Positions 6,924 to 17,193 of a stretch of DNA of 32,000 bases are shown in pieces. Within the stretch, counting starts at the first letter, position 1; each line of letters starts with the position of its first letter. Below the pieces are notes generated by a model. That model worked only from the letters and a program-made list of their open reading frames with translations. It did no database searches and was not told the origin of the DNA. Both the position numbers and the translations under genes were made by a program. Location: contig NC_013849.1 of NCBI RefSeq assembly GCF_000025505.1, positions 750,001 through 782,000 of the forward strand. Direction: 5' to 3'. The stretch comes from Ferroglobus placidus DSM 10642. Its GTDB lineage: Archaea; Halobacteriota; Archaeoglobi; Archaeoglobales; Archaeoglobaceae.

Positions 6924-6998
6924 GCCCGGGTGGTGTAGCCAGGCCTAACATGCGGGCCTGTCGAGCCCGCGCCTCGGGTTCAAATCCCGACCCGGGCG
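6924..6998 (+). tRNA. tRNA-Asp (anticodon GUC), no encoded CCA
   Basis: Folded by hand. Acceptor GCCCGGG/CCCGGGC plus discriminator G. D stem GTGT/ACAT with one G-U pair. Anticodon stem CGGGC/GCCCG with loop CTGTCGA (anticodon GTC). T arm TCGGG-TTCAAAT-CCCGA. Total 75 nt. Confidence 0.9.
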
Positions 6999-7062
6999 TA
7001 AAGGAAAAAGTTAAACGCACGAAAGCGGAGAGCTCGGTATCAAACTTACAGCCCTTAAATAC

Positions 7063-7069
7063 TTTTTTT
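7063..7069 (+). terminator. Oligo-T tract (T7), possible archaeal terminator for the icd/tRNA-Asp transcript
   Basis: Run of 7 T located 65 nt downstream of the tRNA 3' end. Confidence 0.3.
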
Positions 7070-7435
7070 GATAAAAAGGTATACGTGAAGCAAAAGGTCG
7101 ACATGGAAAAATGGAGGAGAATAATCTTTATTGAGGTAAAGTCCATAAGGCTGATTGTGAGTAATAAGGAAAAAATAATAAAGGAGGAATTAAGCAAGAT
7201 TAAATAAGATGAAATACAAGAGGGGGGTTGGCAGTTAGGGAGTTTTGCCATTTTTATTAGTTTATAAGGTCGGGGGAATCCAAAAATTGAGATTCTACTT
7301 CTTAAAATTCGATTTAACCGATAGGCTCGGGTGCCCGAAACTCCTCATCACCAACTATCGAGCATCGAGGGAATGGTTTGAAATCACTATTGGGCCTGAG
7401 GATGGGAGAATGAGTTAAGTGTGGAAGTCTGACCG

Positions 7436-7852
7436 ATGGAGGATGAGAAGAAGAAAATTCTTGGAATAGAGCCAGAAGAGTATTTTACGGGTGAGGACTG
7501 GATAAGGGCTGGACGAAGGCGTTACATGCTTCTGAACATCATTTACTACCTTCAGCACTTTGCAGGAAAAGAGGATGGAGTTAGTATTAGCGAGATTTCA
7601 GAGTTTCTTGAAGTTCTTCAAACTGTTGACAGAGAAATCTACTCCAGCATCGTGAAACCCGGAATAGCTGTGGAATCGACTTTAAGTGAGCTTCTGAATA
7701 AAGGATTGATCATTGATAGGTCAGAAGGAAAATTTTCCATAAATGTGGAAAAGGTTAAGTCGGAAAAAGATTTGATTTACTGGGGAAGTGTGAAAAGAGT
7801 ATTTGACAAGGTTAATGAAATAATGAGTTTTGGAGGTTATAGAAATGAATAA
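7436..7852 (+). CDS. Small hypothetical protein with a winged-helix-like core, first gene of the McrBC-like module
   Basis: 138 aa. The segment '[11 protein letters not shown]...[24 protein letters not shown]' reads like helix-turn-helix plus a beta wing (my inference). Its stop (7850-7852) lies inside the start region of the next gene. Confidence 0.55.
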
Positions 7853-10800
7853 AGAAAGGTTAAAGCCGGTGTTAGAAGAGTTAAGAGAAAAATACGAGAA
7901 AGAATGGAGAAGTGTTGAAGATACTATTTTGAAACATCTTGATGAAGTTAAGGAAACCATCGAGCAGCATTTAAAAAACAATCAGGAAATTGATTTTGAA
8001 ACAGCAAAGAAAATATATGAAAAAATTGAAACAATAGACAACTTAACCAAGCCTTTTCTTCTGTGGATATCTCCTTCAGAAGGAGGATTTGCAAGGGATA
8101 AACATGAGGACACAGAGAAAATAAGAACGAAAATATTGAACAATCAAATAATTAGAGATTTTCTAAATGAAGTTAAAAGCTTAGAGAGTTTAGGGGAGCT
8201 CCAAAGAATTAAAGATAGACTTGAAGAAATTAAAGGAACCGAAGAGATCAAAGGAATAAGCATATCTAATTTAAGCACGTGGATGAGTATCTTCAATCCG
8301 AAAATTTTCATGCCAACATGGGAAAACACAGTAAATAAGCATCTGAGGAATGATCTGGGTTTTAATCGATTCTGGGGTGGTGATTCGGATATTGAAAAAT
8401 TTATTGAGTTTACCAAAACCGTTAGAGAGATTGCTGATGAGGTTGGAATAAATAGCATGTTGGAAGCTGCATTTTATCTAAGCAAGTATGAAAGAAGCAA
8501 TGTTGAAAGTTTTTCAGATTTACTTAAATTACTTAAAGAACTAAAAGATTACTATCATAAAGAATGGAAAGAAGTAGAAAAGCCATTTATGGATAAAATT
8601 GAACAAATAAGGAAATTAATTCTGGAAAAAATTGAAGGCGGTGAAAGATTCAGTGAGGAAGATGTGAATGAAATCCTCAAACTAAGAAACGAAGTTCCTG
8701 AAAATTGTAAATTCTTATTAAGATATTTTGTTAGTGCAGGAGTACCTCCGAAAGAAGTGCTAATTAGACTACTCAACAATAAGAATTTCCAAAATCTGGT
8801 TAAATCGATAAGTCAAAGAAAAGAGGATGAAATAAGGAAGTTCTATAAATTAACCAAAGAAGAAGTAATGTATGTCGGTAACTCATCGTTGAGTACTTGG
8901 CTTGCAGTTTTGAATCCAGAATATTACATGCCTACTTGGGGATGGGAACATCAAAGTGGAACCCTGCCACTTGTATTATATAAGGATGTCAAAGAGCTTA
9001 GGAGTTTTGAGAAATGGTGGACACAAGAACCAGAGAAAATATTTGAGCTGTTTTCTCTTTTGAAGAAAGTTTCAAATGAAGCTGGGATTAATAACATGTT
9101 TGAAACGGCGTTCTATTTAAATAAGTATGAGAGCAGGAATATAAAAGAGAAAAATTACTGGATAGAGATAGGAGGCCCACCCTCAAAAGAATATATAGGT
9201 AAATACCTGTGGGCTCCGAAGGCACCGCAATGGAGATTACTGGAAAATGTTCAGAAAGACGACATTATTTATCATTATGTCACTTCCAAAGGGCCTGAGG
9301 AGTTTGGGGGAAAGTTTGTCGGAAAATCTAAAGCAAAGGAGAAAGCCAAGGAAATTGATAAAGATGAACTTGTCAGAATAATGAGGGAGATTGACGAAAA
9401 TTGGGATAACTTCTTTGAAGGTTGGAGAAATTATGATACCTTCTACTTAGTCGAACTTTACGATTATAACGAATTCAAACAACCGATCTCGAAAGAAGAG
9501 GTTGGATTTAATCCCCCTCAGAAATATTTTGTCAGGGCCCCATCCGAAATTGTAAACAAAATTGAACAGCTGACGTCAACTCAAAAGAAGTCAGAAATCG
9601 ATGAAAAAACAAAAAAGAAAATCGAAACCATTCTCACCTACAAAAAACAACTCATCCTTTACGGCCCTCCTGGCACGGGCAAAACATGGCTTGCAAGAAA
9701 CTATGCAATAGAAGTTGGTCAAGAAAAATACAGGTTTAGAAGAAAAACCCTATTGGGTGTAGAATTTTTCTTTTGGGTTATAAACCCTGAGAGGTGGGAT
9801 TATACACAGCTTGAAGAAGGCAAAGACGTTGAAATGGGGAAAGGAAGATTAAAGAGTGCGTTTGAAAAGATAAACAACGGAGACCTGGTGTTTATATATG
9901 TAGGTAAACAAATAGGAAAGATATACGGAATCGGGAAATATAAATACGATGATTCAAACGAAAAGCCCTACTTATCTGTTTTGAAGCTATTTGAAGGACC
10001 CAGTTTAAACGATTTAAGAGCAATTTTGAAGGACTCGATTCCAATTAAACAAAACCTAAGAGGAACTTTGTTTCCGTTGAAGCCTGAAGAAGGTCTAAAA
10101 CTGCTTGAAGCATCAGGATTAAGTCTGAGTGATTTAAGCCTTGAGGCGGAAGAATACTCTGAAGAGGTAGAGGGTATAAGATTCGTTACTTTCCACCCCT
10201 CTTATTCCTACGAGGAGTTCGTTGAAGGATTAAGGCCAAAAGCGGATGAAGAAGGGGATATTAGGTACGAGATAGAAGATGGAATTTTCAAAACTGTTTG
10301 CAAAGACGCCTTCAATGCCCTTATGAACCATGCCGGCATCGATAAGGTGTGGGAAGATGAATTACCCGAATTAAGCTATGAAGAAAAACAGATTGTTTTA
10401 GGTTCTCTGGAAGATGCTCCAAAATTCTTCCTCGTGATAGATGAGATAAACAGGGGCGACATTTCCAGAATTTTCGGGGAGCTCATAACTCTTATAGAAG
10501 AAGACAAAAGGCTCTTTGCCGAGAACGAGCTGACAGTTACTCTGCCATACTCCAAGGAAAAATTCGGAGTCCCGCCCAACCTCTACATTATAGGCACTAT
10601 GAACACAGCAGACAGAAGCATAGCCCTGATTGACGTAGCCCTGCGCAGGAGGTTTGGTTTTATCGAACTCATGCCGGACTACGAAATTCTCGAAGATAAG
10701 CTCTTGTCAAGGGATGATGAAGCGAGAGATATTAAAGAACTCGCAATCGATGTTTTGAGAAAACTGAACGAAAGAATCAGAAAGAATTACGACAGAGACC

Positions 10801-11060
10801 ATCAAATAGGGCACAGCTACCTTTTAAAGCTTGAAAAAGCCGATACCAAAGATAAAGCAGTTGAAACTCTGCAATTCATCTGGTATCACGAGATACTCCC
10901 GCTGCTGCAGGAGTACTTCTACGACAGTCCGGAGAAGCTTAAGAGAGTCCTCAACGAAGCATTCGTTAGGGTTGAAGAGAATAGCTTCGACTTTGAGTAC
11001 CTTGAAGGTGAAAGATTTGTTGAAGAGCTGAGAAAAGTTGCCGAACAGGAGCAGCAATGA
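7845..11060 (+). CDS. Giant McrB-family AAA+ GTPase (type IV restriction specificity/motor subunit) with a multi-domain N-terminus and an internal insertion
   Basis: Walker A GPPGTGKT (9663-9686); '[16 protein letters not shown]'; Walker [12 protein letters not shown] (10425-10457); McrB signature '[11 protein letters not shown]' (MNTADRS at 10599-10619); 'LRRRF'. Start taken at ATG 7845, preceded by GGAGGT (7833-7838). The ORF track uses TTG at 7830. Confidence 0.9.
7860..9140 (+). repeat. Intragenic tandem duplication, two ~210-aa copies of an uncharacterised module in the McrB-like N-terminus
   Basis: Copy 1 (aa 11-224) against copy 2 (aa 231-437): [26 protein letters not shown]; [38 protein letters not shown]; [40 protein letters not shown]. 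Confidence 0.85.
9153..9497 (+). other. PUA/EVE-like putative modified-base reader module (aa 442-556 of the McrB-like protein)
   Basis: '[10 protein letters not shown]...[26 protein letters not shown]...[17 protein letters not shown]'. The pattern (aromatic-W start, conserved W, acidic-DxIxxY strand, trailing beta strand) resembles PUA-superfamily domains fused to type IV enzymes. Assignment is by eye only. Confidence 0.4.
9762..10124 (+). other. EVE-like domain inserted within the AAA+ core (aa 645-765)
   Basis: '[13 protein letters not shown]...[33 protein letters not shown]...[18 protein letters not shown]...[17 protein letters not shown]' matches the EVE pattern (W..NP..W, GD.V.FY, I.GIG, trailing 'pl..ee'). 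It lies between Walker A (aa 612-619) and [10 protein letters not shown] (aa 788-797), which are about 25 aa apart in E. coli McrB as I recall it. Confidence 0.6.
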
Positions 11061-12337
11061 AAACCTATTCAACCTTTGAGTATTCGGAAGTGGAGTACAG
11101 AATAACTGACGATGGAGAGGAAAGAGTAGAGAATAATGTACTCTACCTCAAAGAGAAATCTGTTGAATATCTGGAGAAACTGAACGTAGCTCAGGTTCTG
11201 AGAAACAAAATAAAATTCCAGAACTACGCTGGAGTCATTTCTTTCGAAGATATCAGGCTGGAAATTCTCCCAAAATTTCTCAGGACGGATAAGAAGCTGG
11301 TAAAACCAGAAGAAATTGATGAAAAGAGAGAGAAAATCTTGCAAAATCTCGTTAGAATGCTTGAATATTCGGGATGGGAAGGAATTAAGGAAACCGACCT
11401 CACACAAATCGGGACGGAGAAGGATTTCTTTGAAATCTACGTTTTCCTCTTTGCAAAAAACCTTGCAGAGCTTCTCAAGGTAAACAGGGATGCATCTTAC
11501 GTCCGAACTTACGACGAACTCAGATTCGTAAGGGGGAAGATAGAATTCAGGAAGTACTGGAATCCAGCAAGACTTCATATAATTCCATGCAGCTACTATG
11601 AGAGGAACATGAACACACCAATCAACCGCACCCTGAAATTCGTCTCGTATCTTCTTTTAAAGAAAGTTGAAAGCTCTGAAACGAGAAGGTTGCTTAAAAG
11701 CGTGATATCTGTATTAGACTCAGTCACTTTGTCCCCAGTAACTCTGGCAGAGGTCGAGAAAATCACCTTCAACAGGCTTAATTCACGCTTCATTCCGTTC
11801 ATAGACTTTTGCAGAGCTTTTTTGAGAGACTCAGTTTTCTCGCTTCAGGGCTCGGATGTAGAGTTCTTCTCATTCCTAATACCGATGGAGACATTGTTCG
11901 AAAGATTCGTGGCGAAAGCCGTAAAAGAGTTATATAAGGGCACAGAATGGAAACCACATATCCAAGAAACATTTGGTTATCTAGTACCCAAAGAGAAACT
12001 TTTCCAGCTACAGCCGGATATAGTTCTCGAAAATGGGGGAGAAAGGGTGATAGTAGATACAAAATACAAGATCCTGGACCCAGAGGACAGAAAGCTCGGT
12101 GTTTCTCAGCAGGACCTTTACCAGATGTACGCATACTGCAAAGAGCTTGGATCCAGTAAATGTGTACTTATATACCCCGAAAGTCTGAATGGCAAGATAG
12201 ATGGAGAATTTAAACTTGGAAGCAAGGAAAAGATCGATTTGAAGGTAAAAACAATATCTCTCGAAAACCCATTTGATAACGGCAAACTTTCGGAGAATTT
12301 TAAGGAAAGTTTGAGGAACGCTATAGGATTACTCTAA
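11057..12337 (+). CDS. McrC-like PD-(D/E)xK endonuclease subunit
   Basis: 426 aa. '[10 protein letters not shown]' followed by '[22 protein letters not shown]' (PD...D-T-K-Y-K, 12014-12070) and '[10 protein letters not shown]', the McrC C-terminal nuclease signature. The ATG overlaps the mcrB-like TGA (ATGA at 11057-11060). Confidence 0.88.
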
Positions 12338-12696
12338 TCTTACATCTGACTTAGTTAAACAAAAAACTTAAGTATAACAAATCTAATCAACTATTAATGT
12401 CCCAAAAGGCTTACATAACCCTCCTCGGCCGCTCTGGCTGGGCGCTTATTTTAAAGGTTTAACTGTCATTGTGGTTTGCAGAGGTCTGAGAGGTCTCTCT
12501 GGGGAAAAAGAGTTAAAAGGAGTCTAATCTTCTACGATAAAGCTGAATTTGCTTATAACGTCTCAAACAAATAGGAAGTGGGTTTATCCTTCGTTATTTT
12601 AGCAATTCCGTAAGAAATTTTAATAGCTAAATTATAATCGGATTTCTCGCAAACGAGCTGAAATGATAAAGTATTTCAAAAAGTCAACGAAACTGC

Positions 12697-12723: not shown

Positions 12724-13041
12724 GTGAACGAACCCGTGGAAATCGTCGACCTTCTAAAGAGAATTCTCGACGTTTTGGAGAGGATAGAGAAGAAAATCAG
12801 CAACAACGGTGAGGAGGAAAAAATCAAATTCGACCCATTCACACTTCTCGAACTTCCGGACAATTTAAGATCTACCGCTATGGCGCTGATAAAGCTTGGC
12901 AGAGGGACAGCCTCTGACGTGGCGAAGATAACGGGAAGAGGAAGAGCCATAGAAAGTCATTATCTAAACACCCTCGTTAAGATGGGTTACGCGAAAAAGA
13001 GGAGAGAGGGAAGGAGAGTTATCTATGAGATCCGAGGTTAA
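12724..13041 (+). CDS. Winged-helix (MarR/TrmB/ArsR-like) transcriptional regulator
   Basis: 105 aa with a GTG start. 'LPDNLRSTAMALIKLGRGTASDVAKITGRGRAIESHYLNTLVKMGYAKKRREGRRVIYEI' is a typical wHTH (HTH plus a basic wing). Confidence 0.65.
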   Translation: MNEPVEIVDLLKRILDVLERIEKKISNNGEEEKIKFDPFTLLELPDNLRSTAMALIKLGRGTASDVAKITGRGRAIESHYLNTLVKMGYAKKRREGRRVIYEIRG

Positions 13042-14074
13042 CGGTGCGCTCCTTACCTTCTCCTACGGTTCCTTTTTGCTAACCTACCCAAACTTTGGTC
13101 CTATTTCGATTAAGATTGTAGAAGCGTTGAATGCAAATCCCTACGAGTTTTTTTCCTGTTTTTACCTTTCTCACGTACTTGGGATAGCTTTTTCATCGAT
13201 TTTTCTCGATAGAGTTGAAAAGCGAATAAGGTTACTCAAAGTAACAATTCCAGTTTTAATTTCATCGGCATTTCTGACAATTTTCAACCACTTGGCAATT
13301 TTTGCAATCGGTTTTACAATGGGTGTATTTATTGTAATCCTCGGCAGTTACTTCGCCCGCTTCATAAAACCTTGGAGAAGAGGTAAAACTTTTGCTTTTG
13401 GCGCTTTCATGTCCAACGTTTACCTTTTCCTTTTAACCAAGCTAACGTTCCTCAACCTCCCAGTTCTCGTTCTCTTGTCCATCCTTCCGTTGCTGCTCGT
13501 ATTCACTATACCCAACGAGAACTTCGAGCTAAGATCCTCCAAAATAAATGGAAAATTCGTTTATTTCTCTTTGCCGGTTTTCGTTTTCTACTTCGTTGGA
13601 GGAGTGATGTACGGAATTATGGAAAAAGCCTTCAGAGAGGCTGGAATATCAACGCACGTACTCTTTTACGCTACGTTAGTAATTCTCGCGGGAATCGTGT
13701 ACGACAAAGTTGATAGGAAAATTGTTGCAATCGCTGGACTAATCGCTTTATCCGCCTCGCTCCTTCTCTTTCCCTCTTCGCTCGTTTACTCTGCTCACCT
13801 TATCCAGTCTTCATACGCTTTCGTGGACGTCTTTGCAATGATGATCTGGGCGGATATAAGCAGGGTTGGCAGCGAAGCGAAACAGTACGGAATTGGAATG
13901 CTTTCGATAACACTTCCGATATACTTGGGATTTCTCCTTTCCGAATCGTTTTCGTTCCAGCTGAGTACGACGATAATGATCGTCCTCCTCGTTCTTTCAG
14001 CCTTCTTACTCGGCTCCGTGGAGGAGCCGGCAACAACTCCTGAAGAATACCTGAGGTGGTTGGCAAGGAGGTAA
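13025..14074 (+). CDS. Polytopic membrane protein, MFS-like (about 10-11 predicted TM helices)
   Basis: 349 aa, almost entirely hydrophobic helices. A basic loop 'KPWRRGKTFAFG' resembles MFS motif A. It overlaps the wHTH gene by 17 nt. Confidence 0.55.
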   Translation: MRSEVNGALLTFSYGSFLLTYPNFGPISIKIVEALNANPYEFFSCFYLSHVLGIAFSSIFLDRVEKRIRLLKVTIPVLISSAFLTIFNHLAIFAIGFTMGVFIVILGSYFARFIKPWRRGKTFAFGAFMSNVYLFLLTKLTFLNLPVLVLLSILPLLLVFTIPNENFELRSSKINGKFVYFSLPVFVFYFVGGVMYGIMEKAFREAGISTHVLFYATLVILAGIVYDKVDRKIVAIAGLIALSASLLLFPSSLVYSAHLIQSSYAFVDVFAMMIWADISRVGSEAKQYGIGMLSITLPIYLGFLLSESFSFQLSTTIMIVLLVLSAFLLGSVEEPATTPEEYLRWLARR

Positions 14075-15161: not shown

Positions 15162-15854
15162 TTACAGCTTCACCCTCCTCCTAACGAGCTGATTTCTCTC
15201 CGAAATTTTTTCGAGAAACTTCTCGAAGCTGTCGAAGTCTGCAACTTTTTCTTTTAAAAATACCCCAGTTCTACCTATCTCTCTCCTCCTCTCCAGAACC
15301 CTAATTCTTTCTTCAACTATGTCCACGCCAACTCCGAGAATCTTTGCAACTTCACTTTTATCGAGTTCGTTAATCGGAATTTCCACGTGCCCAAAGCTCT
15401 CGGGAATTATCAGCACGAGCCTCTTATCAACTCCGCAAACCCTCTTGTCATTTCTTAATTCGTCGAGTGTTATTGCACCTCCAAATTTGTAGAAATCCAG
15501 CTCTCTGTCCTTCATCTTCGCAAGGGGAAAGCTGACGTTGGCATTAGCCAGTACGAACTCCCCTTTAACGACGTGATTTGGCGTGGCTTGAATTATCCTC
15601 TTCTCCAAAATTTCGAAATCCGAAAGAGCGAGTTCTATCTTGAAGGAGGGGATTTGAAGGGGGATGAAAATGTCGACGTCGCTGCTTTCCTTAACGTCAC
15701 CCCTCGCTACGCTTCCGTACAAAATCGAAGGAATTCCGAAATCCTCGAGAGTTTCCATTAACTCCTTCGCAATTTTTCTCTTCTCTTTTAAAAGATTCCA
15801 GTGATTTTCGTCGTATTTTACAACCCTCCTTTCCCCGTAAGTTGCGACTTTCAT
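15162..15854 (-). CDS. Pol-beta-superfamily nucleotidyltransferase domain protein
   Basis: 'ILYGSVARGDVKESSDVDIFI' is the GSxxRGDx5SDxD minimal-NTase motif. Start taken at ATG 15854, which forms an ATGA overlap with the cutA stop. The ORF-track start at 15923 would overlap cutA by 73 nt. Confidence 0.75.
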   Translation of the reverse strand: MKVATYGERRVVKYDENHWNLLKEKRKIAKELMETLEDFGIPSILYGSVARGDVKESSDVDIFIPLQIPSFKIELALSDFEILEKRIIQATPNHVVKGEFVLANANVSFPLAKMKDRELDFYKFGGAITLDELRNDKRVCGVDKRLVLIIPESFGHVEIPINELDKSEVAKILGVGVDIVEERIRVLERRREIGRTGVFLKEKVADFDSFEKFLEKISERNQLVRRRVKL

Positions 15855-16159
15855 TCTACCGTTTCGTCTATCCAGTCCAAGTACTTCCTGTCCCCCTCCT
15901 CTACGTTCAAAGCGCATATGCATGGAGTTGTGTAGCTGTGGATTTTCTTTATCTCCTCCCTAACCTCAGAGAACTTTTCAGCTTTCGTCTTTACTATCAT
16001 CGCATACTCCTCATCTCGCTGAATTTCCCCTTCCCACCAGTACATCGACTCTATCTTCCAGAAATTAACGCAAGCGGCAAGCTTCTTTTCGAGGAGGTGC
16101 TTTGCTATTTTTTCAGCTTCCTCCTTGGAAGAGGCTGTTACGTAGATAAAGTAGTACAT
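15851..16159 (-). CDS. cutA: Divalent-cation tolerance protein CutA
   Basis: 102 aa. 'VYVTASSKEEAEKIAKHLLEKKLAACVN...YWWEGEI...E..MIVKT...HSY..P' is typical CutA1. Confidence 0.9.
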   Translation of the reverse strand: MYYFIYVTASSKEEAEKIAKHLLEKKLAACVNFWKIESMYWWEGEIQRDEEYAMIVKTKAEKFSEVREEIKKIHSYTTPCICALNVEEGDRKYLDWIDETVE

Positions 16160-16195: not shown

Positions 16196-16843
16196 TCAAG
16201 AATAGAAGTCTTCCAGTTTCTTTCTGGCTCTTCGGAGCGCATCTTTTCCAACAAGCTTTTCAGCATACTCATCTGCAGCTTTCTCAATTTCGTTCTCGGG
16301 AATGTGGAGGAAAGTTAAAAACTTAACAGCCTTAAGCGAAAACAGTTTGTTTTGCATGGCATGGAATTTTTCGTGGTATATAACAGCCGAAAGCTCGTCC
16401 TCTTCAAGTAACTCGAGCAAACCCTCGCTTACAAAAACATCTCTTCCTACCGTGAATGCTTTGGGAAGAAGAGTGTTCAGCACGTAAATTCTTTTTAAAT
16501 CGTGTTTTTTCGCAAGCTCGTCATCAGTTCTAAAGCCGTACATCTTTCCCAAGTACAGCTTGTAAGCTTTTGGAAAGCTGAAAAGGAGAATTCCGAACGT
16601 CAAAGCGTAGAGAGCGTAGTACTTCATAAACCAAAACATGTCGCAGGACATTGAGAAGTAAACTACCGGAAGATTGACCGCTACAAAAGCGTTTGCGAAT
16701 ACGTAAAACTTCACTTTGAGAATCGAATCCCTCGAAAGCAAGTATCCTAAAGTAGCAACAGCGACACCTAAGCTGAAAACAAAAAAAGCTTTACCGAAGT
16801 TAGAGTTTGCAAGGCAGTAAAACGCGCAGGCTATTGAATTCAC
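16196..16843 (-). CDS. Membrane zinc metallopeptidase, M48/M56 (BlaR1/HtpX-like), with no sensor domain
   Basis: Three to four N-terminal TM helices, then 'PKAFTVGRDVFVSEGLLELLEEDELSAVIYHEKFHAMQ' (HExxH at 16361-16375). 4-nt overlap with the upstream BlaI-like gene. Confidence 0.7.
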   Translation of the reverse strand: MNSIACAFYCLANSNFGKAFFVFSLGVAVATLGYLLSRDSILKVKFYVFANAFVAVNLPVVYFSMSCDMFWFMKYYALYALTFGILLFSFPKAYKLYLGKMYGFRTDDELAKKHDLKRIYVLNTLLPKAFTVGRDVFVSEGLLELLEEDELSAVIYHEKFHAMQNKLFSLKAVKFLTFLHIPENEIEKAADEYAEKLVGKDALRRARKKLEDFYS

Positions 16844-17193
16844 TTCTTTTCCACCTTCCTGTGGAAGTAGTCCACAACAACATCTCCAAACTTATCGATT
16901 AACTTGTCGAGAATGCTTTGAACGAAATTAACCTCCACATCCTTCTTGCTTACAGCCGGATAAAACACGAACTTTCTTCTCCCTTCAACGCTCTTCTTCT
17001 CCTTCTTCACGAATCCGTTTTTCTCAAGCCTGTCGAGAGTGGCGGCAACACTCGACATCGACGCGTTTACACCTTTAGCGATCTCCGAAAGAGTAGCTTC
17101 CTTTTTCTCCCACAGAAACTCCATTATTTTTTCTTCGAGGGGAGAGAATATCCTCAGCTCTTCGCCTAATTCGATTCTCTCTTTTTTGACCAT
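16840..17193 (-). CDS. BlaI/MecI/CopY-family winged-helix repressor
   Basis: 117 aa. 'LSPLEEKIMEFLWEKKEATLSEIAKGV...SSVAATLDRLEKNGFVKKEKK..GRRKFVFYPAVSKKD' follows the penicillinase-repressor family layout. Confidence 0.8.
   Translation of the reverse strand: MVKKERIELGEELRIFSPLEEKIMEFLWEKKEATLSEIAKGVNASMSSVAATLDRLEKNGFVKKEKKSVEGRRKFVFYPAVSKKDVEVNFVQSILDKLIDKFGDVVVDYFHRKVEKK

Follow-up and report, generated by a model that had tools for sequence, protein, structure and literature searches.

A coupled McrBC module of Ferroglobus placidus with a predicted mosaic of reader domains and a small winged-helix-like protein shared with larger archaeal loci

We analysed a 32,000-nt stretch of the Ferroglobus placidus DSM 10642 genome (NC_013849.1, positions 750,001–782,000), hereafter the window, in which three coupled genes, here called g1, g2 and g3, occupy positions 7436–12337 (coordinates are counted from the first letter of the window, and features lie on the forward strand unless stated otherwise). 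We suggest that g2 and g3 encode a McrBC restriction system of the NxxD clade whose McrB carries a mosaic of target-reading domains, that g1 encodes an adaptor belonging to a conserved set of genes (the chassis) found in related archaea, and that the F. placidus locus has been trimmed from a larger one. As a whole, this is the account that we favour and consider probable, with considerable room for doubt.

The three open reading frames (ORFs) lie on the same strand: g1 (Ferp_0863) at 7436–7852 encodes 138 aa, g2 at 7845–11060 encodes 1071 aa from the ATG at 7845 (the ORF itself opens at 7830), and g3 at 11057–12337 encodes 426 aa. The g2 product is 100% identical to the F. placidus protein annotated as 'ATPase AAA_5'. 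The g1/g2 junction is spanned by ATGAATAA, where the TAA stop of g1 (7850–7852) overlaps the start of g2, and direct reading shows a GGAGGT Shine-Dalgarno-like site (7832–7837) 7 nt before the g2 ATG, within the 3′ end of g1. The end of g2 and the start of g3 have the ATGA at 11057–11060 in common. The coupled ORFs and overlaps described in the initial annotation are all present where it had placed them, and so are the McrB motifs of g2 and the McrC nuclease core of g3.

McrBC is a textbook Type IV restriction enzyme. The motor of g2 contains GPPGTGKT (residues 607–614), DEINRG (866–871), the signature loop MNTADRS (919–925), which reads as NxxD (N-T-A-D, 920–923), and RRRF (934–937), and a further ten-residue motif quoted in the initial annotation lies at 783–792. 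The protein matched the NCBIfam McrB model at 1.8e-43, its AAA_5 match was split, and its C-terminal motor part carries a precomputed PF28529 (McrB_lid) assignment. The GTPase comes in two segments: the first (9597–9749; residues ~585–635, with an AAA match at 603–637) comprises the Walker A motif GPPGTGKT and the next helix, and the second (10179–11060; residues 779–1071) the Walker B motif, the NxxD signature, RRRF and the lid. The closest solved relative is McrB of Thermococcus gammatolerans (TgMcrB; 6UT5/6UT3), found with an E value of 3e-74. The g3 product is McrC, with an N-terminal finger or DUF2357-type region and a PD-(D/E)xK nuclease (11057–12337); it matched the Pfam McrBC family (PF10117) at 3.9e-66 over residues 52–374 and NCBIfam McrC at 1.9e-28, and its closest solved relative is TgMcrC (6UT5_G, E = 4.2e-25). 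Its predicted catalytic residues are PD at 320–321 and D334-x-K336 within VDTKYK (333–338), aligned with PD...DAKYR of the T. gammatolerans protein.

Because the family models, the motifs and the matches to TgMcrB and TgMcrC agree, we read g2 and g3 as a canonical NxxD-clade McrBC (Type IV restriction) pair, and the assignment to McrBC made in the initial annotation is borne out by the same evidence. Membership in the CoCoNuT group is ruled out by the NxxD motif (NTAD), found in place of NxD. If the pair behaves like the homologous complexes solved from T. gammatolerans and Escherichia coli, McrB would form a hexamer, into which McrC would insert, stimulating GTP hydrolysis and cutting DNA through its PD-(D/E)xK site; GTP-driven, modification-dependent cleavage and a modified base as the target are likewise what homology would predict for this pair.

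About 600 aa of domains precede the motor of g2. Directly before it, in the canonical place, lies a PUA-like reader domain (9153–9524; residues 437–560), which matched PDB entry 6N0S (6n0s_A) with E = 0.0026 in phmmer and E = 1.1e-7 in a profile search. That entry covers 181 aa from the N-terminus of an archaeal AAA_5/McrB-type ATPase. We take it to be the McrB N-domain from Staphylothermus marinus, the fold of which is PUA-like and of the EVE type, as reportedly described by Hosford et al. in J Struct Biol in 2020. An assignment of 6N0S to the N-domain of the T. gammatolerans protein was rejected, as its sequence differs from that of 6UT5 at residues 55–81.

The split of the motor is caused by an insertion of ~150 aa, delimited by the alignment of g2 residues 592–628 with TgMcrB 200–236 and of g2 residues 779–821 with TgMcrB 243–285; the insertion of about 140 aa noticed in the initial annotation is therefore real. 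The insert (9750–10178; residues 636–778), placed between the Walker A helix and the next strand, appears to be an EVE-like domain of the PUA superfamily. It scored 14.7 bits against Pfam EVE (PF01878), for which the cut-off is 23 (E = 0.031), while hhalign gave a probability of 97.9% and an E value of 5.8e-13 against EVE domains of other McrB homologues, all five of which match PF01878 themselves. A profile of the insert against PDB sequences returned nothing significant (a YTH protein, 4rcm, at E = 0.14). We conclude that the insert is very probably homologous to EVE-like domains, though its score stays below the Pfam cut-off. The same EVE-like insert is found in homologue P0003, an 883-aa protein with the g2 architecture minus one R copy (see below). 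The site after the Walker A helix appears to be an insertion hot spot, because P0012 and the NxD-type McrB of locus L018 carry different inserts there. This agrees with earlier work and corrects the initial annotation: insertions in the GTPase domain of McrB have already been reported as frequent and as likely to encode specificity domains (Bell et al. 2024, PMC11090510).

The remainder of the N-terminal region is taken up by two copies of a domain of ~205 aa, which we call the R domain. Copy 1 (7854–8492; residues 4–216) and copy 2 (8517–9134; residues 225–430) were detected by an iterated hidden Markov model (HMM) built on homologues with E values of 4.7e-80 and 3.2e-64, respectively; they are 27% identical to each other, and homologue P0005 aligns to both. 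According to the iterated HMM, McrBs of g1-bearing loci, those of the NxD clade included, contain one to three copies. The R domain had no Pfam match and no match in plasmids, its profile drew only spurious apolipoprotein and coiled-coil matches from PDB sequences, and a word-index homologue search with g2 residues 1–441 returned one protein. An AlphaFold2 model is all-helical (pLDDT, the per-residue model confidence, 86.5), and its best folds in PDB are Ogg2-type 8-oxoguanine glycosylases of similar size (3knt, 3n0u and 3fhg; E = 0.27–1.7, template modelling score 0.40–0.47); a Foldseek search against viral structures gave nothing significant. The R domain is thus possibly a catalytically dead relative of the HhH-GPD glycosylases, a weak suggestion that comes from the model. 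Target recognition would fall to a reader mosaic on McrB, made up of the PUA-like domain, the inserted EVE-like PUA domain and the two R domains. That specificity could not be predicted from known N-domains, as had been thought, is only half right: two of the four modules are PUA-superfamily readers of a sort that McrB proteins were known to carry.

For the g1 product, 21 homologues with 52–85% identity were found, giving 22 family sequences in an index of 5.8 billion proteins and 19 clusters among 1.84 billion (1.84e9) representative proteins. In the species-level genome set the family occurs only in Archaeoglobus, Geoglobus, Ferroglobus and Thermococci, and no match was found in plasmids, phages or viral contigs. 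Ratios of non-synonymous to synonymous substitution rates (dN/dS) of 0.13–0.32 (0.25 against the closest relative, L010) indicate purifying selection, and g1 is a real, rare and conserved gene. Its AlphaFold2 model (pLDDT 81) has the topology H-H-H-H-β-β-H, with a long N-terminal helix, a three-helix, two-strand winged-helix unit and a C-terminal helix. Foldseek returned weak matches to DtxR/MarR, LmuC and Rpa2-WH proteins (best E = 0.077) and no ERCC4-like folds. The winged-helix-like character proposed earlier for this protein is supported by the model and these weak matches. The protein is acidic (isoelectric point 5.1); the helix at the recognition position is variable, has a net charge of -2 and lacks conserved basic residues. 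Invariant residues concentrate in helix 1, in the pattern EDWxRAGRRRxxLLNxIYYLQ, which includes the conserved basic RAGRRR.

We examined ~18 distinct loci of the g1 family (loci and proteins are given below by our L and P numbers), of which 16 had enough downstream sequence. Usually, g1 follows a gene for a ~510-aa nuclease of the metallo-β-lactamase (MBL) fold (Lactamase_B/RMMBL) at a distance of a few to ~140 nt. The exceptions are L013 and L028, where a TPR gene lies between the two, L033, with the MBL gene 4 kb upstream, and L026, where none was seen; the MBL-fold gene is nevertheless the most constant neighbour of g1. On the 5′ side of the MBL gene are RmuC, a small GIY-YIG gene and a gene combining HFX_2341_N with a winged helix, from a family in which a repressor of cas genes has been characterised (PMC11434293). 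On the 3′ side of the effector pair are a CARF-like gene of 162 aa (d162; weak Csa3_N and Cas_NE0113 matches), a PIN-like gene of 338 aa (d338) and a HAD hydrolase gene. The predicted order of the chassis is then HFX_2341-type CARF-like/winged helix-turn-helix (wHTH) regulator, GIY-YIG, RmuC, MBL, (TPR), g1 and the effector pair, which would be followed by (a g1 paralogue), the CARF-like d162, the PIN-like d338 and HAD.

In 14 of the 16 informative loci a McrB/McrC pair lies downstream of g1, in both gene orders and from both GTPase clades; the pair is adjacent in 12 of these, inverted and 3 kb away in L008, and a few kb away in L026. Such recurrence speaks against a fortuitous adjacency of g1 and McrB. 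In Thermococci the order is g1, a McrC with DUF2357 and PD-(D/E)xK (PDDEXK_7), and then a McrB with NxD (VNMDE), which is to say the other clade in reverse. This arrangement was noted in L018 (10418–14952), L015 (451–4649) and L019 (10418–12094). The NxD McrB of L015 carries two R domains, and that of L018 has its own insert of ~170 aa after the Walker A helix. McrC sequences form two groups (~37% versus 60–73% identity), which do not track the identity of g1; g1 identity between loci is 50–85%, independent of McrC type. As a separate observation, recombination appears to affect the McrB motor and McrC independently of each other: the motor of L007 is 71% identical to that of L001, and its McrC is 35% identical to that of L001 and 60% to that of the window.

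An association with McrBC is, however, not what defines g1. In L024, a TPR::g1 fusion is followed by SbcD/SbcC-like genes and there is no McrBC, and in L033 GmrSD lies near a g1-type gene, again without McrBC. Conversely, in L020, the locus that encodes P0003, the MBL gene is directly followed by McrB and g1 is absent. The claim that g1 is a dedicated partner of McrB was not upheld by these loci and by the greater constancy of the MBL gene; g1 appears to belong to the constant chassis rather than to the specificity apparatus of McrB. TPR/g1 fusions are encoded as P0043, P0051 and P0058, in L028 TPR is a gene of its own, placed between MBL and g1, and in L022 and L023 a TPR gene is present and g1 is absent. 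The arrangement in L024/L025 (4488–12996) is MBL, TPR::g1, Metallophos (SbcD-like), AAA_23 (SbcC/Rad50-like), d162 and d338, so that the slot of McrBC seems to be occupied there by a different effector pair.

Several further observations were made on these loci. L001 encodes at 12869–13231 a 120-aa paralogue of g1 (~45% identity) between McrC and the CARF-like gene. The g1 family therefore occupies two locus positions, as this paralogue sits directly after McrC; the g1-type gene of L032/L033 is in the second position. In L026 (CP002737.1, GCA_000214415.1; 2894–13917) a 638-aa g1::TPR fusion lies in the neighbourhood of HFX_2341_N, GATase_4, RecD2-like helicase and McrB-type genes, which extends the association of g1 beyond Archaeoglobales and Thermococci. 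An apparent in-frame fusion of g1 and McrB in L014 (4450–4790) was discarded as an artefact of a masked run of N, such as also occurs in L013 at ~8700.

Set against these neighbourhoods, the three genes of F. placidus appear to be a trimmed piece of the larger conserved locus, from which the chassis has been deleted on both sides, since relics of the flanking genes lie on either side of them. On the left, a degraded 3′ end of an MBL-fold nuclease gene was recognised by eye at 7335–7418, reading PKLLITNYRASREWFEITIGPEDGRMS before a stop and resembling the MBL C-terminus PEIIIPVHTTKHDWFLENFEGVKALGDGGYVEV, likewise followed by a stop. BLAST did not detect this likeness of 7335–7418 to the MBL C-terminus; DNA similarity to the other loci starts at 7406–7420, corresponding to the last 15–30 nt of their MBL genes. 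This relic implies that the upstream half of the ancestral locus was deleted next to the tRNA-Asp gene. On the right, a relic of a d162-type (CARF-like) gene start at 12397–12462, MSQKAYITLLGRSGWALILKV (the first ~17 codons of such a gene, in a truncated frame of 21 codons closed by a stop), aligns with the d162 gene starts of L001, L005, L008 and L013.

Between g3 and this relic is a promoter-like element (12354–12396), a TATA-like TTAAGTATAA between inverted GTTRA...TCAAC, matched by blastn in L001, L008 and L013. It has the form GTTGAAC-N-TTTAAGTATAAC-N-ATCAAC (window 12354–12396; L001 4296–4339 and 5100–5130), and its counterparts in the related loci stand in front of three different transcription units, namely the gene of the HFX_2341-type regulator, the GIY-YIG operon and the gene of the CARF-like d162. 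The window holds a single copy, and a pattern search found none 5′ of g1 there. The element may be an operator of the HFX_2341-type regulator.

What g1 does in such loci can be approached from its context. Most likely it would act as an adaptor coupling the constant chassis (MBL/TPR) to whichever effector lies downstream; in our opinion, it would work through protein contacts and the conserved basic RAGRRR helix and not as a classical sequence-specific repressor. We favour the adaptor role because g1 occurs fused to TPR repeats, keeps its place between chassis and effector, has an acidic surface and is conserved whatever the type of effector. A number of points weigh against our overall account. 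The adaptor role is one that we infer from fusions and context only, and the enzymology of all members is deduced from homology. The winged helix of g1 comes from one AlphaFold2 model made from a 22-sequence alignment, and its fold matches are not significant; the likeness of the R domain to glycosylases is below significance as well, with none found by the profile search of PDB sequences, and the EVE-like insert falls under Pfam's own threshold. The McrB of closest architecture, in L020, presumably works without g1. Finally, a g1 that has stayed intact and under selection after the loss of MBL/TPR would be explained at least equally well by a function connected with McrBC itself, for instance regulation.

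That last point is also the best support for the main rival to the adaptor, a controller-type regulator, which would control its own operon (g1-mcrB-mcrC), or else the TATA/inverted-repeat promoters found in the larger locus, and so limit the toxicity of the nuclease. Repressors of the MarR/DtxR type are among the top (weak) fold matches of g1, the gene opens the module in F. placidus and overlaps the one that follows, as controller genes do, and the promoter-like inverted-repeat element recurs in related loci and has its one copy here at 12354–12396. We nevertheless hold this role to be rather unlikely. Elsewhere g1 is nearly always in mid-operon, shortly after the MBL (or TPR) gene; both the protein as a whole and its putative recognition helix are acidic, and that helix is variable; the loci already encode a CARF-like/wHTH regulator of the HFX_2341 type, from a family of known cas-gene repressors; the TPR fusions indicate protein–protein interaction; and the promoter element has no copy 5′ of g1 in the window.

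Less likely still is that g1 in F. placidus is a hitch-hiking remnant of the MBL/TPR module, spared by its adjacency to mcrB and contributing nothing to restriction by McrBC. The relics do show that the locus was truncated, and such a reading would agree with MBL being the steadiest neighbour of g1, with the occurrence of g1 beside SbcCD-like or GmrSD genes in the absence of McrBC, and with a McrB of the same architecture that exists without g1. We find it improbable in view of the intact ORF, the preserved start/stop overlap and Shine-Dalgarno site shared with mcrB, and the dN/dS of 0.25 against L010, although that comparison cannot date the deletion. Finally, it is very improbable that g1 is a trans-acting DNA-specificity subunit like R1 of the three-gene systems LlaI and BsuMI, guiding the complex to certain sequences. 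Some McrBC systems do have three genes, one of them for a separate protein that binds DNA (bioRxiv 10.64898/2026.08.31.748284), and g1 is co-translated with McrB and bears the basic RAGRRR patch, but LlaI.R1 is unrelated to it in fold and size (a 329-aa two-domain ERCC4-like protein), R2 of those systems lacks the N-terminal readers of which g2 has four, g1 is far more conserved than the variable readers, the opposite of what a specificity factor would lead one to expect, and there is no methyltransferase nearby.

To return to the adaptor, a wider proposal can be built on it, which we put forward tentatively and regard as possible more than as likely: g1 may mark a modular defence chassis, as yet undescribed, in hyperthermophilic Euryarchaeota (Archaeoglobales, Thermococci and a Methanococcales-type genome) with interchangeable effectors, of which F. 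placidus would preserve a decayed survivor. The constant set would consist of the HFX_2341-type CARF-like regulator, GIY-YIG, RmuC, the MBL-fold nuclease, TPR and/or g1, the CARF-like d162, the PIN-like d338 and HAD, driven from shared TATA/inverted-repeat promoters; the effector cassettes would be NxxD McrBC, DUF2357/NxD McrBC, SbcCD-like genes or GmrSD, and the physical link between chassis and effector would be provided by winged-helix g1. McrBC, the EVE/PUA readers and the GTPase inserts are already known. For the g1 family, the R domain and a chassis of MBL, RmuC, GIY-YIG and CARF-like genes with exchangeable effectors we found no description in the literature searched, the coverage of which was incomplete; nor, with the same limit, did we find a named McrBC subtype with this gene set, as had been anticipated.

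To our knowledge, how McrBC readers position DNA is still unsettled, and a motor with four predicted readers, one of them within the GTPase fold, offers a test case for relating reader geometry to translocation and cleavage. The R domain is a new candidate nucleic-acid reader. More broadly, g1 leads to a conserved archaeal locus where a single slot, with nuclease and CARF-like genes that stay the same on its flanks, holds different effector pairs; effector exchange, if true, would give a concrete case, open to testing, of cassettes being swapped in the defence islands of archaea, and might link signal-sensing (CARF-like) modules to Type IV restriction.

The module lies directly after a tRNA-Asp(GTC) gene (6924–6998, ARAGORN), the left boundary of a low-GC segment that contains it, with GC content falling from ~0.44 in the surroundings to 0.33–0.37 over 7000–9500. 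Integration at this tRNA gene with att repeats was considered and rejected, no tRNA-derived direct repeat being present downstream. Its left neighbours are housekeeping genes (pyruvoyl arginine decarboxylase and isocitrate dehydrogenase), and TrmB-like, MFS-like and ParA-like genes lie on the right. Near the module, the window contains no methyltransferase gene, and within the module no extra nuclease gene. A few kb downstream, on the reverse strand (15165–15923 and 16199–17193), are a nucleotidyltransferase-domain gene (NTP_transf_2/Polbeta) and an M48 peptidase that forms a pair with a repressor of the BlaI/MarR type; these seem unrelated to the module. With PADLOC, neither g1 nor g3 was assigned to a named system and g2 drew only generic REase/AAA matches, and a scan for promoters and terminators of the bacterial type was uninformative, the host being an archaeon.

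Compared with known systems, g1 resembles the controller (C) proteins of restriction-modification systems in its position and overlap in F. placidus, and differs from them in being mid-operon elsewhere and acidic; no operator-like element was found on its 5′ side in the window. The larger g1 loci are reminiscent of CoCoNuTs (CnuB/CnuC), which are McrB/McrC derivatives in multi-nuclease loci with CARF regulators, in that they too carry CARF-like genes and nucleases. CoCoNuTs are characterised by NxD, by long coiled coils and by tandem nucleases such as HEPN, and hardly occur in archaea (PMC11090510), whereas g2 has NxxD, no long coiled coil, and an N-terminus of two globular helical domains of ~205 aa. 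LlaI and BsuMI likewise are three-gene cassettes of a small upstream protein, a McrB-like motor and a McrC-like nuclease. Their R1, however, is a DNA binder of ~330 aa compared with the 138-aa modelled winged helix of g1, their R2 has no counterpart to the ~600 aa of N-terminal domains in g2, and they act site-specifically alongside cognate methyltransferases, which g1–g3 lack in their vicinity.

Among Type IV systems, the combination of EVE with McrB is the commonest EVE defence architecture and often comes with additional domains (Bell et al. 2020, PMC7641849). Neither that paper nor the 2024 study, which deferred the non-CoCoNuT branches to a later publication (PMC11090510), describes the R domain, g1 or the MBL/RmuC/GIY-YIG/CARF-like chassis. 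The protein of 6N0S is homologous to residues 437–560 of g2 at ~20–25% identity and has the same position relative to the motor. The McrBC of T. gammatolerans (6UT3–6UT8) shares with g2 and g3 the NxxD loop MNTADRS, the Walker motifs, the mcrB-mcrC order and a PUA-superfamily reader directly before the motor, and no g1-like gene has been described for it. TgMcrB has a single N-domain of the YTH type and a 7-aa linker; beyond this plan, g2 has two R domains and a PUA/EVE domain inserted between the positions of TgMcrB residues 236 and 243.

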